A stretch of DNA of 64,000 nt from Escherichia coli (GTDB lineage: Bacteria > Pseudomonadota > Gammaproteobacteria > Enterobacterales > Enterobacteriaceae), in assembly GCF_024223415.1 (NCBI RefSeq), contig NZ_CP100500.1, one strand, 5' to 3'. Each line of letters begins with the position of its first letter. The stretch's first letter is position 1. Position numbers and translations under genes: made by a program. The notes beneath the pieces were generated by a model. It made no database searches. It was not told where the DNA came from and saw only the letters and a list, made by a program, of their open reading frames with translations. Below, in pieces: positions 6,091 through 45,697 of the stretch.

Positions 6091-6180
6091 AGAAATTAAT
6101 TTCCTTAAATAACAGTGAATTAAAAACTGGCATGATTTGTGAATGTATCGGCGCATTAACTGTCATTGCTGGAGAATTTG

Positions 6181-9240: not shown

Positions 9241-10374
9241 CTACACCGGCAATGTTTTCAACAATCCAAATGCCTCTTTCATCCGATCCTCACTGACCAC
9301 AAAGGCGCGAAGTTGGTCTGCATCGTCAACACCGCGCGCCACCATTCCCTGGCGTTCGGTATTAATTTGCCAGCGTAAATCCTGACGCTGGGTTTCGCCT
9401 GCCAGATGCAGCGGTAATTCCGGCGTTTTGATTTTCACCAGCATCGCCGGTAGTTTCAGTGGCGTGTTATTGCCGAGAAGATTTTTTGCCAGCACCATCG
9501 CGCTAAGTTGAATCGGCTGCAGGAACGGCAGTACCTGACCGTTAATTTCCGCGCAATCGCCCAGCGCGTAAATATCGGCATTACTGGTTTGCAGATAACT
9601 ATCGACGCAAACGCCGCGATTAATCGTCAGCCCGGCGCGTTGTGCCAGGGCTGTTTCCGGGCGCAGTCCGGTGGCGGCAATTACCGCATCCACTTCGATA
9701 CTACGCTGGCGGTCCAGCGTTGCCAGAATGCCAGAATCCGTTTTTTCCAGCCCCTGCAACTGAGATTTCAACAGCAGATGAACGCCCATCTCCGTCAACC
9801 GATGCTGCAAGCGACTGCTTACTTCCGGTGGCATTAACGACGCCAGAATACTGGCAGCGTTGTCGATTAGCGTAACCATTTTGCCTGCACGACAAAAATC
9901 CATCGCCAGTTCGCTACCAATCAAACCACCGCCAACAATCAACACGCGTCGGGCATTCCGCAGTTGCGTTTCACAGGCGCGATACTCTTGCTGACTATTT
10001 AACGTCAGCATTAACTCACGCCCAGGCACTGGCGGGACAAAGGCGCTGGCACCGGTTGCCAGCACCAGCTTGTCGTATTGCCACTGATTATTCTGGCTTT
10101 TCACCACACGGGCTTCGGCATCGATATCCGTCACCCAGGTTTGCGGAAACAGGAGCAGATTAAACTGCTCGGCAAATTCACCCGCCGTCTGGCGGGTAAG
10201 GTCGTCGGCACGTTGCCCCTGACTGATAACATGGCTGAGGTCAGGTTTGTTGTACTCATCCATGCTGTCGGCGGCAATCAGGGTTAATGGAATACTGGCG
10301 TCCTGTTTGCGAATATTTTTCACCAGTTGGCGGGCGGCGAAGCCCGAACCAATGATCACAATGCCGTTGCTCAT
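9241..10374 (-). CDS. norW: NADH:flavorubredoxin reductase NorW
   Basis: 377 aa; FAD/NAD Rossmann motifs ([19 protein letters not shown]). Confidence 0.93.
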
Positions 10375-11810
10375 TTTGCCTCCGATGCCAGTTCGTCAAA
10401 GACGTCTTTGCCGAGGGAGCATTCCGGGCACAGGAAGTTATCCGGGACTTCACTCCACGGCGTTCCTGGCGCAACGTCCTGCATTGGCTCGCCTTTTGCC
10501 GGATCGTAAATCCACTGGCAGACGCTGCACTGCATCCGTGGGCCGAGGTCAGCCGTCGTGGTGGCAGAGGTTTCTTCTTTAACTACCGTATTCACCGTGC
10601 TCTGCGGCAGCGGCGCGAGCGCCCACTGACGGGCGATTTCGCGACCGTGTTCACGGCATAACTCCAGAGCGTCCTGGTCTGGTCGCCATTTCGCTTTCAG
10701 GCTAAGCGACATTTCGAAACCCGCATCCTGCAGGCGCGTGGAAAGACGATCCACCGCACCGCCGCTCCAGCCGTGAGAGCCGAAAGCACTGGCGCGTTTG
10801 TTACGGAAGCGTAATCCGGTCATCTCCTCCACCAGCCCGGCGATTTTCGGCATCATCACGTTATTCATCGTCGAAGTGCCGACCAGCACGCCTTTTGAGC
10901 GGAAGACATTGGTCAGGATTTCGTTTTTATCGCTTCGGGCGACGTTGAAAATTTTCACCGCCACGCGTGGGTCGGTTTCCGCAATCCCCTGGGCGATAGC
11001 GTCAGCCATCATGCGGGTGTTATTCGACATGGTGTCGTAGAAAATGGTGATTCTGTCTTCCTGATAATCAGCGGCCCACTTCAGGTACAGCTCGACAATT
11101 TGCGTCGGGTTATCGCGCCAGACCACGCCGTGGGAGGTCGCTATCATATCGACTGGTAAGTTAAAGCCCAGGATCTCGGTAATTTTCGGCGTTACCAGGC
11201 GGCTGAACGGCGTCAGGATATTGGCGTAGTAACGCTGGCACTGCTCGAAAAGCTCCGTCTGATCCACTTCATCGTTGAACAGATGCTCGTCGCAGTAGTG
11301 CTGACCGAAAGCATCGTTACTGAACAGCACCGCGTCGCCTGTCAGGTAAGTCATCATGCTGTCCGGCCAGTGCAGCATTGGTGTTTCGACAAAAATGAGC
11401 TGTTTGCCGTTGCCGATATCCAGCGTGTCGCCAGTTTTCACCACATTAAAATTCCACTCCGGATGATGGTGATGACCATTTATCGAGTCGATAGCGTTGG
11501 CTGTACAGTAGATCGGCGTATCGGGAATTTGTGCCATCAGTTCGGTTAGCGCCCCGGCGTGGTCCTCTTCTGCATGGTTAATCACGATGTAATCGATATC
11601 CGCCAGATCGATTTCATTACGCAGGTTCTGCACAAATTCGCGGCTGAATTTATGGTCGACGGTGTCGATCAGCACGTTTTTTTCTTCGCGGATGAGGTAG
11701 CTGTTGTAGCTGCTGCCGCGCAGCGTTTTATATTCCGTGCCGTGAAAATCTCGTACTTCCCAGTCACGTTGACCCACCCAATGAATGTTATTTTTCACCA
11801 CAATAGACAT
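10371..11810 (-). CDS. norV: anaerobic nitric oxide reductase flavorubredoxin NorV
   Basis: 479 aa; metallo-beta-lactamase-like, flavodoxin-like, and C-terminal rubredoxin Cys motifs (CSVCQW...CPEC); 4-nt overlap with norW. Confidence 0.93.
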
Positions 11811-11857
11811 AGCAACCTCAATTTATTCAGCGTGTTCTAAAAAGATGTCTTGCTAAT

Positions 11858-11873
11858 TGCAGATTGCGTGCCA
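11858..11873 (-). promoter_or_regulatory. sigma-54 (-24/-12) promoter of norVW
   Basis: Minus-strand reading TGGCACgcaatCTGCA, about 35 nt upstream of norV start. Confidence 0.75.
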
Positions 11874-11928
11874 GTTTTTTATCTAATTGTTTTTACTCTA
11901 TAAATAAAATTATGCTCATTAGTGAGTA

Positions 11929-11984
11929 GTCAAAATGACTATCAATCAAATGGTCGATATGACAATATCTATAGTCAAATTGAC
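11929..11984. promoter_or_regulatory. three NorR enhancer sites (GT-N7-AC inverted repeats)
   Basis: GTCAaaaTGAC 11929-11939, GTCGataTGAC 11953-11963, GTCAaatTGAC 11974-11984, in the norR-norV divergent region. Confidence 0.8.
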
Positions 11985-11996
11985 AGTGAGGCAAAG

Positions 11997-13511
11997 ATGA
12001 GTTTTTCCGTTGATGTGCTGGCGAATATCGCCATCGAATTGCAGCGTGGGATTGGTCATCAGGATCGTTTTCAGCGTCTGATCACCACGCTGCGTCAGGT
12101 GCTGGAGTGCGATGCGTCTGCGTTGCTACGTTACGACTCGCGGCAGTTTATTCCGCTTGCCATCGACGGGCTGGCGAAGGATGTACTCGGTAGACGCTTT
12201 GCGCTGGAAGGTCATCCACGGCTGGAAGCGATTGCCCGCGCGGGTGATGTGGTGCGCTTTCCCGCAGACAGCGAATTGCCCGATCCCTATGACGGTTTGA
12301 TTCCAGGGCAGGAGAGTCTGAAGGTTCACGCCTGCGTTGGTCTGCCGCTGTTTGCCGGGCAAAACCTGATCGGCGCATTGACGCTCGACGGGATGCAGCC
12401 CGATCAGTTCGATGTTTTCAGCGACGAAGAGTTACGCCTGATTGCCGCGCTGGCGGCGGGAGCGTTAAGCAATGCGTTGCTGATTGAGCAACTGGAAAGC
12501 CAGAATATGCTGCCAGGCGATGCCGCTCCATTTGAAGCGGTGAAACAGACGCAGATGATCGGTCTGTCGCCAGGCATGACGCAACTGAAAAAAGAGATTG
12601 AGATTGTGGCGGCGTCCGATCTCAACGTCCTGATCAGCGGTGAGACGGGAACCGGTAAGGAGCTGGTGGCGAAAGCGATTCATGAAGCCTCGCCACGGGC
12701 GGTGAATCCGCTGGTCTATCTCAACTGTGCCGCACTGCCGGAAAGTGTGGCGGAAAGTGAGTTGTTCGGGCATGTGAAAGGAGCATTTACTGGCGCAATC
12801 AGTAACCGCAGTGGGAAGTTTGAAATGGCGGATAACGGCACGCTGTTTCTCGATGAGATCGGCGAGTTGTCGTTGGCATTGCAGGCCAAGCTGCTGAGGG
12901 TGTTGCAGTATGGCGATATTCAGCGCGTTGGCGATGACCGTAGTTTGCGGGTCGATGTGCGCGTGCTGGCGGCGACTAACCGCGATTTACGCGAAGAGGT
13001 GCTGGCAGGGCGATTTCGCGCTGACTTGTTCCACCGCCTGAGCGTGTTTCCACTTTCGGTGCCGCCGCTGCGTGAGCGGGGCGATGATGTCATTCTGCTG
13101 GCGGGGTATTTCTGCGAGCAGTGTCGTTTGCGGCAGGGGCTCTCCCGCGTGGTATTAAGTGCCGGAGCGCGAAATTTACTGCAACACTACAGTTTTCCGG
13201 GAAACGTGCGCGAACTGGAACATGCTATTCATCGGGCGGTAGTGCTGGCGAGAGCCACCCGCAACGGCGATGAAGTGATTCTTGAGGCGCAACATTTTGC
13301 TTTTCCTGAGGTGACGTTGCCGCCGCCAGAAGTGGCGGCGGTGCCCGTTGTTAAGCAAAACCTGCGTGAAGCGACAGAAGCGTTCCAGCGTGAAACTATT
13401 CGTCAGGCACTGGCACAAAATCATCACAACTGGGCTGCCTGCGCGCGGATGCTGGAAACCGACGTCGCCAACCTGCATCGGCTGGCGAAACGTCTGGGAT
13501 TGAAGGATTAA
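11997..13511 (+). CDS. norR: sigma-54-dependent NO-responsive regulator NorR
   Basis: ORF 11922..13511; start at [16 protein letters not shown] gives 504 aa (ORF-track extension would cover the NorR sites); GAF, AAA+ ([14 protein letters not shown]) and HTH domains. Confidence 0.92.
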
Positions 13512-16935: not shown

Positions 16936-18473
<1,538 letters not shown>

Positions 18474-18710: not shown

Positions 18711-19796
18711 ATGTTCAAGCGTCGTTATGTAACATTGCTTCCCCTTTTTGTGTTGCTTGCCGCCTGTAGCAGCAAGCCAAAACCTACTGAGACTGAAACG
18801 ACCACCGGAACGCCGTCTGGCGGCTTCCTGCTTGAGCCGCAGCACAATGTGATGCAGATGGGCGGTGACTTCGCCAATAACCCGAATGCCCAGCAGTTCA
18901 TCGACAAAATGGTGAACAAACACGGTTTCGATCGTCAGCAGTTGCAGGAAATTCTGTCCCAGGCGAAGCGTCTGGATTCGGTGCTGCGGCTGATGGATAA
19001 CCAGGCACCAACCACATCGGTGAAACCGCCATCAGGTCCGAACGGCGCATGGCTGCGTTATCGCAAAAAATTTATTACGCCGGACAACGTGCAGAATGGT
19101 GTGGTTTTCTGGAATCAGTATGAAGATGCGTTGAATCGCGCGTGGCAGGTGTATGGCGTACCGCCGGAAATTATCGTCGGGATTATCGGCGTTGAAACCC
19201 GCTGGGGGCGCGTGATGGGGAAAACTCGCATCCTCGATGCGCTGGCAACGCTGTCATTTAACTACCCACGCCGCGCGGAGTATTTCTCTGGCGAGCTGGA
19301 AACCTTCCTGCTGATGGCGCGCGACGAGCAGGACGATCCGCTCAATCTGAAAGGTTCCTTTGCCGGGGCGATGGGCTACGGACAGTTTATGCCGTCGTCT
19401 TACAAACAATATGCGGTAGATTTCAGCGGCGACGGGCATATCAACCTGTGGGATCCGGTTGATGCGATCGGTAGCGTGGCGAACTATTTCAAAGCGCACG
19501 GTTGGGTGAAAGGCGATCAGGTCGCGGTAATGGCAAACGGTCAGGCTCCAGGCTTGCCAAATGGCTTCAAAACCAAGTACAGCATTTCGCAGCTTGCCGC
19601 GGCAGGTTTAACGCCACAGCAGCCGCTGGGCAACCATCAACAAGCCAGCCTGCTGCGTCTGGATGTCGGTACCGGTTACCAGTACTGGTACGGTCTGCCG
19701 AACTTCTACACCATTACCCGTTATAACCACAGCACCCATTACGCAATGGCGGTCTGGCAGTTAGGACAAGCCGTGGCGCTGGCGCGCGTGCAGTAA
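18711..19796 (+). CDS. mltB: membrane-bound lytic murein transglycosylase B (lipoprotein)
   Basis: ORF 18606..19796; start at MFKRRYVTLLPLFVLLAAC (lipobox LAAC) gives 361 aa. Confidence 0.92.
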   Translation: MFKRRYVTLLPLFVLLAACSSKPKPTETETTTGTPSGGFLLEPQHNVMQMGGDFANNPNAQQFIDKMVNKHGFDRQQLQEILSQAKRLDSVLRLMDNQAPTTSVKPPSGPNGAWLRYRKKFITPDNVQNGVVFWNQYEDALNRAWQVYGVPPEIIVGIIGVETRWGRVMGKTRILDALATLSFNYPRRAEYFSGELETFLLMARDEQDDPLNLKGSFAGAMGYGQFMPSSYKQYAVDFSGDGHINLWDPVDAIGSVANYFKAHGWVKGDQVAVMANGQAPGLPNGFKTKYSISQLAAAGLTPQQPLGNHQQASLLRLDVGTGYQYWYGLPNFYTITRYNHSTHYAMAVWQLGQAVALARVQ

Positions 19797-25815: not shown

Positions 25816-25908
25816 GGTGAGGTGGCCGAGAGGCTGAAGGCGCTCCCCTGCTAAGGGAGTATGCGGTCAAAAGCTGCATCCGGGGTTCGAATCCCCGCCT
25901 CACCGCCA
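25816..25908 (+). tRNA. serV: tRNA-Ser (anticodon GCU)
   Basis: 93-nt cloverleaf with long variable arm; acceptor GGTGAGG/CCTCACC; anticodon loop ctGCTaa; genomic CCA. Confidence 0.95.
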
Positions 25909-25911
25909 TTT

Positions 25912-25988
25912 GCATCCGTAGCTCAGCTGGATAGAGTACTCGGCTACGAACCGAGCGGTCGGAGGTTCGAATCCTCCCGGATGCACCA
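25912..25988 (+). tRNA. argV: tRNA-Arg (anticodon ACG), copy 1
   Basis: 77 nt gcatccgtagctcagctggatagagtactcggctACGaaccgag...ggatgcacca. Confidence 0.95.
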
Positions 25989-26123
25989 TATTCTCCGTAA
26001 CCTTCAGCGATGAAGGTATGGAAGAGGTGGCGGTACTAACCGCAGGCACCAGGGAGGATAACGTTGCTTTAGCAACGGCCCGAAGGGCGAGCCGCAAGGC
26101 GAGTAATCCTCCCGGATGCACCA
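25989..26123 (+). repeat. structured 135-nt inter-tRNA element ending in a 19-nt tRNA-Arg 3-prime remnant
   Basis: Several short hairpins (ccttcagcgatgaagg, cgttgctttagcaacg); terminal aatcctcccggatgcacca at 26105-26123 matches the tRNA-Arg T-arm/acceptor 3-prime end; near-identical copy at 26404-26536. Confidence 0.8.
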
Positions 26124-26187
26124 TCTCTTACTTGATACAGCTTTAGTAGCGGTATCAAAAAATCTGCAGTAAAGTAAGTTTCCCGAT

Positions 26188-26264
26188 GCATCCGTAGCTC
26201 AGCTGGATAGAGTACTCGGCTACGAACCGAGCGGTCGGAGGTTCGAATCCTCCCGGATGCACCA
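26188..26264 (+). tRNA. tRNA-Arg (anticodon ACG), copy 2
   Basis: 77 nt, identical to copy 1. Confidence 0.95.
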
Positions 26265-26326
26265 TCTCTTACTTGATATGGCTTTAGTAGCGATATCAAT
26301 ATCAGCAGTAAAATAAATTTCCCAAT

Positions 26327-26403
26327 GCATCCGTAGCTCAGCTGGATAGAGTACTCGGCTACGAACCGAGCGGTCGGAGGTTCGAATCCTCCCGGATGCA
26401 CCA
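26327..26403 (+). tRNA. tRNA-Arg (anticodon ACG), copy 3
   Basis: 77 nt, identical to copy 1; only 62-nt spacer from copy 2. Confidence 0.95.
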
Positions 26404-29312: not shown

Positions 29313-29385
29313 AAAAAGGCCACTCGTGAGTGGCCAAAATTTCATCTCTGAATTCAGGGATGATGATAACAAATGCGCGTCTTTC
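29313..29385 (-). ncRNA. micA: MicA (SraD) small RNA
   Basis: Reverse complement reads gaaagacgcgcatttgttatcatcatccctgaattcagagatgaaattttggccactcacgagtggccttttt, with terminator hairpin ggccactcacgagtggcc plus U-run. Confidence 0.95.
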
Positions 29386-35978: not shown

Positions 35979-36060
<82 letters not shown>

Positions 36061-39378: not shown

Positions 39379-39587
39379 GCAATAGAAAGATTCCTGTTAT
39401 TTGTTTATGTCGATACATTACCCAATGGAAATAGTCACTTTTTTCTACCCTAACATACTGAGAATCTGAGGCAACCCCTGAGGGCAAATGTGGCATGAAT
39501 ATTGATGTGAGCAAATCGCCGGAATTTCCCATGATATAAGGGCTGAGAGCAAATCGAGAAAAGTTGATATTTTTTGTCAAAGATAGC

Positions 39588-45031: not shown

Positions 45032-45697
45032 GCTAATGCTCCTTAATAAAAGCGTAATGGGATGTTAATGGAGATGAAAGCAGTGGATCTCATTGCCATC
45101 TGCATTTTCTCATAGCGTATATCGCTGGCTATGACTAATCAATTAGTGAAAAATTTTTATTTAGTCAGTTTTTGTAGATAAAATATTCCGTAACGGCTCG
45201 TTTTTTGTACATTGTGGGTTTTTACATGCCGATATGATTTATTTTCAATTAAATCAATTAGATATGACCTTGCCTTTAATTTCACTAATGAAAGTTTGGG
45301 GTGAGGTAACGCTATAAGCGTAGAGAATTCGGTGTATGTCGTGACCGGGTCATTTACAGCATTTTTTATGCCAGAAAATGTACATTAACAGCAGAAAGCA
45401 CCAGTGAGGGGTGTTTTCTTTTATTCTATTATATTGCATTTTTATTCACTTCGGTTTTGTCAGGCTTGCGGAATTAGCGAGCATAGAGCGCCACTCTGTT
45501 CACCAATAACCTAAATTACTCATCAAAATGGCTAATATATAATCTTGAAATTATTCTGAGAGTTTCAGAAAATAACAGCTGAAATAATCTCGCGCAGGAC
45601 TGTAAATAGATTAAATTTTGTGGAAATATAATAAGTGATCGCTTACACTACGCGACGAAATACTTTTTTGTTTTGGCGTTAAAAGGTTTTCTTTATT

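Follow-up and report, generated by a model that had tools for sequence, protein, structure and literature searches.

The DNA analyzed here (a stretch of 64,000 nucleotides, hereafter the window) is part of an E. coli chromosome and is collinear with that of strain SCU-316 along its full length, at 99.8–99.97% identity. The only part of the alignment that contains gaps is the tandem repeat of a tRNA array at 25816–26400 on the plus strand; it holds one long tRNA (tRNA-Ser in SCU-316) and three more, while the array of SCU-316 has one Ser and four Arg tRNAs. At the locus of interest, norW and norV lie on the minus strand and are followed by the divergent norR on the plus strand and then by gutQ and srlR. 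The three nor genes are as follows:

9241–10374, minus strand: norW, NADH:flavorubredoxin reductase, 377 aa, intact ORF (NF003437, 682 bits)
10371–11810, minus strand: norV, flavorubredoxin NO reductase, 479 aa, intact ORF (NCBIfam equivalog NF003954, 1047 bits, matched end to end)
11997–13511, plus strand: norR, NO-sensing enhancer-binding protein, 504 aa (NCBIfam equivalog NF003451, 823 bits against a cut-off of 476)

The norW reading frame overlaps the norV stop codon by 4 nt, and our norV call agrees with the RefSeq annotation of the near-identical strain SCU-316. Each of the three products scored above the NCBIfam equivalog cut-off for NorR, NorV, or NorW. A Pfam search of NorR identified the GAF, Sigma54_activat, and AAA_lid_14 domains and listed no helix-turn-helix family; we infer that the helix-turn-helix domain is present because the equivalog matches over its full length and the literature describes one. 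The protein has GAFTGA at residues 262–267 and carries the iron ligands R75, D96, D99, C113, and D131. The rpoN and IHF genes fall outside the 64-kb window.

The divergent norR–norV intergenic region spans 11811–11996 and, at 186 bp, is equal in length to that of K-12 MG1655. An earlier note on this DNA had described a complete norVW sigma-54 promoter and triple NorR enhancer in it. All four of the elements that it named are present at the positions it gave, but "complete" went too far in that the IHF site or sites of the control region had been omitted. The elements that we located, numbered relative to the predicted norV start, are:

11847, minus strand: norV transcription start (+1), inferred (±1 nt), 37 nt upstream of the norV ATG
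11874–11858, minus strand: sigma-54 (−24/−12) promoter of norVW, CTGGCACGCAATCTGCA, best matrix match of the window and the same sequence as K-12 ChIP-seq site OS25
11880–11892, minus strand: IHF-consensus-like 13-mer AAACAATTAGATA, two mismatches to WATCAANNNNTTR, at −45 to −33 and abutting the −24 element
11929–11939: NorR site 1, promoter-proximal, GTCAAAATGAC (norV sense GTCATTTTGAC), centre −87, called from K-12 identity and conservation
11953–11963: NorR site 2, GTCGATATGAC (norV sense GTCATATCGAC), centre −111, same as the wild type of the Site2 primers
11974–11984: NorR site 3, promoter-distal, GTCAAATTGAC (norV sense GTCAATTTGAC), centre −132, same as the wild type of the Site3 primers
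11922–11996, plus strand: 25 codons in frame with norR and upstream of its ATG, not coding, holding the three NorR sites

Read in the norV sense, the order is therefore site 3 (11984–11974), site 2 (11963–11953), site 1 (11939–11929), an A/T-rich spacer, and the sigma-54 element (11874–11858). An Rfam scan of 11600–12200 with E-values up to 1 found nothing, so that a structured RNA is not an alternative for the region. Rfam matches elsewhere in the window were the MicA sRNA (83.9 bits; 29314–29385, minus strand) and naRNA4 (76.4 bits; 35983–36060, minus strand).

For the promoter, we built a 17-column sigma-54 matrix from 40 other ChIP-seq-proven E. coli sites, with norV and hydN left out. In this weight-matrix scan, which had been proposed as a check on the initial reading of a TGGCAC-N5-cTGCA element, the norV 17-mer ranked first with 18.2 bits among about 128,000 positions. 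The element itself is present at 11873–11858 on the minus strand, 11858 being the last A of TGCA. It has the GG-N10-GC form, is oriented correctly, and lies just upstream of norV; given a +1 at 11847, the GG falls at 11872–11871 (−25/−24) and the GC at 11860–11859 (−13/−12). The chance of a match of at least 18.2 bits somewhere in a random window is about 0.11, and by our own scaling it is about a thousandfold lower when just this intergenic region and this orientation are considered. The −12 element starts with C rather than the consensus T, and the same is true of the functional K-12 promoter. Letter for letter, the 17-mer equals K-12 site OS25, which is bound by sigma-54 in ChIP-seq and assigned to norV (Bonocora et al, 2015; PMC4591121). 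The PSSM score of OS25, 12.27, is among the highest in Table 1 of that study, and the site is flagged as experimentally confirmed in EcoCyc (PMC4591121). RpoN holoenzyme selects the norR–norV spacer in vitro in K-12 genomic SELEX, and the Salmonella homologue is sigma-54-bound, sigma-54 dependent, and induced 16-fold by a promiscuous activator.

Other sigma-54-like sequences occur in the window. A second sigma-54 promoter, CTGGCATGATTTGTGAA (6127–6143, plus strand), lies upstream of hydN–hypF; it is the same as K-12 ChIP-seq site OS26 and is FhlA-dependent in the literature. The second-best match of the scan, CTGGCATAAAAAATGCT (45358–45374, minus strand; 17.2 bits), is located between stpA and alaE and is identical in K-12. 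It is not among the intergenic ChIP-seq sites in Table 1 of Bonocora et al and is either unbound, perhaps silenced in an A/T-rich region, or present in the lower-stringency lists of that study only. The sequence GTGGCATGAATATTGAT (39490–39506, plus strand) corresponds to K-12 ChIP-seq site OA04, with coordinates mapped via SCU-316, and is antisense in the first proV codons; Salmonella, too, has a sigma-54 ChIP-chip site at proV. A further match, GTGGCACGCAAATTGTT (62209–62225, plus strand; 15.1 bits), lies inside ypjA, a frameshifted pseudogene in the near-identical strain. A K-12 genomic SELEX study also lists a peak of RpoN holoenzyme at the srlB–srlD junction, corresponding to about 16500 in the window. 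At this junction, the matrix scan gave no strong sigma-54 match, the nearest being at 17317–17333 (minus strand; 12.3 bits).

The three GT-N7-AC inverted repeats that had been claimed are the NorR sites listed above, 11984 being the last base of site 3, and all of them have the stricter form GTC-N5-GAC. Site 1 sits within the perfect palindrome TAGTCA-TTT-TGACTA and equals both the site-1 21-bp oligonucleotide GATAGTCATTTTGACTACTCA and the wild type of the Site1 primers (PMC2831303). The same holds for the whole set, as the palindromes and their flanks all equal the wild-type versions of the Site1–Site3 mutagenic primers (Tucker et al, 2010; PMC2831303). In K-12, a GT/AC to GG/CC change in a single site, whichever of the three it is, is enough to abolish norV-lacZ induction, and each site is thus essential; the change also removes NorR protection at the mutated site and lowers both ATPase stimulation and open-complex formation (PMC2831303). 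When genomic SELEX was carried out with NorR, the protein was bound only at the norR–norV spacer (PMC8249747).

We then placed these elements relative to the norV transcription start. By the rule that we used, transcription is predicted to begin 19 bp downstream of the motif centre, and the distance given for norV from there to the start of the gene is 37 bp (PMC4591121). In the window, 11847 is 37 nt from 11810, matching the K-12 distance; the exact +1 in this strain is a prediction from sequence. The methylation-protection limits reported relative to the mapped norV start in K-12 are −137 and −84 (PMC2831303). With +1 at 11847, position −137 is 11984, which on the norV-sense strand is the first G of site 3, and −84 is 11931, the last G of site 1; the sites span −137/−127, −116/−106, and −92/−82. 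If +1 is moved by one base, both footprint limits fall on non-G residues, and 11847 is the only register that fits. A mapped start inconsistent with the −24/−12 element had been named as the result that would speak against the promoter. As an indirect check, the published footprint numbering, itself derived from the mapped start, is consistent with the element, since −137 and −84 both land on outer G residues, in site 3 and site 1, respectively. The positioning expected for NorR-dependent activation is thus supported, the elements being identical to the characterized K-12 sites and the footprint register fitting.

Compared with K-12, the norR–norVW region is the same in length (186 bp), sigma-54 17-mer, three NorR sites, spacing, Shine-Dalgarno sequence, and both start codons. 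It differs by three SNPs (11922, 11916, and 11885), all located between site 1 and the −24 element and none in a functional element. The SNP at 11922 turns an upstream in-frame ATG of K-12 into GTG in the window. Among 5426 complete E. coli genomes, 421 bp around the norR–norV region had a match in all but one, with 100% identity to SCU-316 and 95–99% to most other E. coli; the norVW control region was accordingly found in 5425/5426, with one genome lacking any match. This allele of the control region is rare, as identity of at least 99% across a 150-bp region was seen in only 65 of the 5426 complete-genome records. In E. coli NZ_OZ547117.1 (2301029–2301121), only 62% of the 150-bp control region could be aligned, at 91.5% identity. 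This genome and the one without a match may have disrupted or divergent norV control regions.

To compare the region across Enterobacteriaceae, one genome per species was scanned with the first 200 NorR residues, which yielded 80 loci, 78 of them with enough upstream DNA; together with the window, this gave 79 sequences. Exactly three GTC-N5-GAC sites were present upstream of the best sigma-54 match in 77/78 loci (78/79 with the window). In all 78 three-site sequences, the spacing from start to start was 21 bp between sites 3 and 2 and 24 bp between sites 2 and 1. The distance from site 1 to the sigma-54 17-mer varied from 63 to 66 bp, with a mode of 65 found in 58 sequences. The sole exception to the three-site pattern is Superficieibacter electus (L054), whose site 1 reads TTCATTATGAC with TT for GT; spacing and promoter are kept. 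Column conservation was approximately 0.90–0.91 in the sites, where the GTC and GAC half-sites are invariant, 0.53–0.63 in the spacers between the sites, and 0.57 between site 1 and the promoter. Salmonella (STM2840), Citrobacter, Klebsiella, Enterobacter, and others thus share with the window the three GTC-N5-GAC sites, their 21/24-bp spacing, the 63–66 bp to the promoter, and an IHF-like 13-mer abutting the −24 element, whereas the spacers of the relatives diverge (53–63% column conservation). A spacer that has diverged in sequence but kept its length is as expected for a looping architecture.

The promoter itself showed one systematic difference. All 79 sequences have TGGCA and the TG of the −12 element. 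The −12 element is CTGCA in Escherichia, including the window, and in Salmonella, Citrobacter, and Kluyvera, but TTGAT, with GA for the canonical GC, in Enterobacter, Klebsiella, Kosakonia, Raoultella, and relatives. Each form occurs in about half of the 79 sequences (loci L014–L083, ~120 nt upstream of the norR ATG).

A conserved island lies next to the −24 element, within the otherwise 57%-conserved spacer. When WATCAANNNNTTR is read in the norV sense, its informative positions (C, A, A ... T, R) coincide with the columns that are conserved in the island, and at this fixed offset the 13-mer has 0–1 mismatch to the consensus in 53/79 sequences; Kluyvera and Citrobacter werkmanii have a perfect match. 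In the window, an A/T-rich tract (11893–11915) lies 5′ of the 13-mer, and the SNP at 11885 relative to K-12 falls at an N position. In K-12, IHF has been reported to bind the DNA that separates enhancer and start site, and a later paper mentions a second IHF site in the control region. The segment 11880–11892 is likely to be the promoter-proximal IHF site, judging from where the consensus falls in the alignment. We rejected a plus-strand reading of the same segment, TATCTAATTGTTT, which would place the consensus C and neighboring positions on some of the least conserved columns, and prefer the minus-strand reading, in which the consensus falls on conserved columns. A search for the IHF consensus with at most one mismatch gave no match in the spacer and 124 in the whole window, and such a search is uninformative alone.

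Conserved as it is across Enterobacteriaceae, the IHF-like 13-mer is weakened in Escherichia, where it carries two mismatches, one of them an A at position 3 in place of the consensus T. Conceivably, the weakened predicted 13-mer, together with the three allele-specific SNPs of the looping spacer, could give this lineage a basal norVW level or an inducibility different from that of K-12, but we regard this as unlikely. If true, such tuning would be a quantitative variant of the known mechanism.

Taken as a whole, 11811–11996 is almost certainly the canonical E. coli norVW control region. Nothing in the sequence stands against this reading; the region is already known, and it has no unusual feature in this strain. 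Because the K-12 region is identical in all functional elements, this strain is expected to behave like K-12, with NO-inducible transcription of norVW that depends on rpoN and norR. Such transcription has been shown for the K-12 region, and the K-12 literature is also our source for sigma-54 occupancy, the binding of NorR and IHF, NO sensing, and the fact that none of the three sites can be dispensed with. In the resulting scheme, sigma-54 RNA polymerase would sit as a closed complex on the −24/−12 element, and NorR dimers would bind the three GTC-N5-GAC palindromes (−87, −111, and −132), helped by flanking DNA. The three sites would scaffold an inactive hexameric AAA+ ring, and bending of the A/T-rich spacer by IHF would allow the ring to touch the polymerase. 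Nitrosylation by NO of the non-haem iron in the NorR GAF domain would then release the repression of the AAA+ domain and free the GAFTGA surface. ATP hydrolysis would drive open-complex formation, and norVW would be transcribed from about 11847.

This architecture resembles NtrC-glnAp2 and other sigma-54 systems, in which an activator site is located ~80–140 bp from the −24/−12 element, an AAA+ hexamer acts on DNA, and IHF introduces a bend. In contrast to NtrC, NorR is controlled by NO on the GAF-domain iron, not by phosphorylation, and it pre-assembles in an inactive form on the enhancer. Compared on the basis of the literature (a statement quoted from Tucker et al, 2004), the NorR-type enhancers upstream of Ralstonia eutropha norA and Pseudomonas aeruginosa hmp have in common with norVW sigma-54 activation and the GT-N7-AC core, to which NorR orthologues bind, but the target genes differ. 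The arrangement of three enhancer sites with a sigma-54 site has been described as unique to E. coli norVW.

The three sites may have an additional role, one that is not a strict rival to norVW activation, namely as an operator that would allow NorR to repress the divergent promoter of its own gene. This norR promoter would have to be within or next to the sites and would be blocked by bound NorR. We consider this moderately probable. Negative autoregulation was reportedly found by Hutchings et al in 2002. The sites cover the whole norR 5′ region. As 12 bp separate the end of site 3 from the norR ATG, the complex assembled on the sites probably restrains transcription of norR as well. The RefSeq name of the K-12 protein is "dual regulator", and NorR regulates both norR and norVW (PMC8249747). 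Against this, a simple sigma-70 scan of the region gave no promoter-like site on the norR strand. Its sole match (9/12) is on the norV strand, overlaps sites 1 and 2, and is no better than those in shuffled sequences.

A different reading of the same DNA would have NorR start at GTG 11922, giving a protein of 529 aa with the NorR sites inside its coding sequence. The frame is indeed open for 31 codons upstream of the ATG, K-12 has an ATG at the codon at 11922, and, as had been pointed out, an N-terminal extension from the GTG to 11996 runs through all three sites. We saw no Shine-Dalgarno sequence upstream of GTG 11922, however, whereas GAGG is present at 11988–11991, 5 nt before ATG 11997, and is conserved in relatives. 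In 26/78 relatives, including three other Escherichia-type loci, the frame upstream of the ATG stays open for 16 codons and then meets a stop at the 17th, and 14/78 relatives have no upstream in-frame start at all. The equivalog profile also begins at residue 2 of the shorter form, positions 3–511 of NF003451 aligning with residues 2–503 of the 504-aa protein. RefSeq annotates 504 aa in both K-12 and the near-identical strain, and R75, D96, D99, C113, D131, and G266 of GAFTGA match their published numbers in the 504-aa form. A 529-aa NorR is thus very improbable. The preference for the shorter start at ATG 11997 was justified, and the evidence for it is better than the original argument that the sites would lie in coding sequence.

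Finally, we asked how much weight the motifs carry by themselves. The bare GT-N7-AC pattern occurs 209 times in the window compared with 185 expected, and 81% of random 64-kb sequences contain three copies within 60 bp. In mltB (19669–19730), four overlapping or adjacent copies cluster by chance within 60 bp. Because triples are this common in random sequence and a cluster of four arises by chance, the GT-N7-AC core, as first written, is too degenerate to be diagnostic alone. The stricter GTC-N5-GAC has 14 matches in the window, and a triple within 60 bp was obtained in 0/1000 random sequences; when length (186 bp) and dinucleotide composition are kept, three bare cores have P = 0.003. A reading of the motifs as accidental matches to short, degenerate consensus sequences in A/T-rich intergenic DNA, devoid of regulatory meaning, would agree with the background frequency of the bare core, with the 1.8 matches per window expected for the sigma-54 16-mer pattern TGGCAC-N5-TTGCA with one mismatch, and with the absence of the 17.2-bit match from the K-12 ChIP-seq intergenic sites, but it is extremely improbable and already refuted by conservation data and published mutagenesis: the strict triple did not arise in random sequence, half-sites, spacings, and promoter distance are invariant across genera, and the elements are identical to K-12 elements that were bound and mutated in experiments. 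The decisive support for the norVW control region is position, conservation, and identity to characterized K-12 DNA, not motif statistics alone.

Two cautions follow for work of this kind. The published GT-N7-AC core is no evidence by itself, and a high sigma-54 matrix score, as between stpA and alaE, need not match a reported bound site. The finding changes nothing that is known; a textbook enhancer and the norR start were recognized from sequence alone. The region in question is important for NO detoxification in infection, and as the PnorV/NorR sensor it is used in engineered probiotics.
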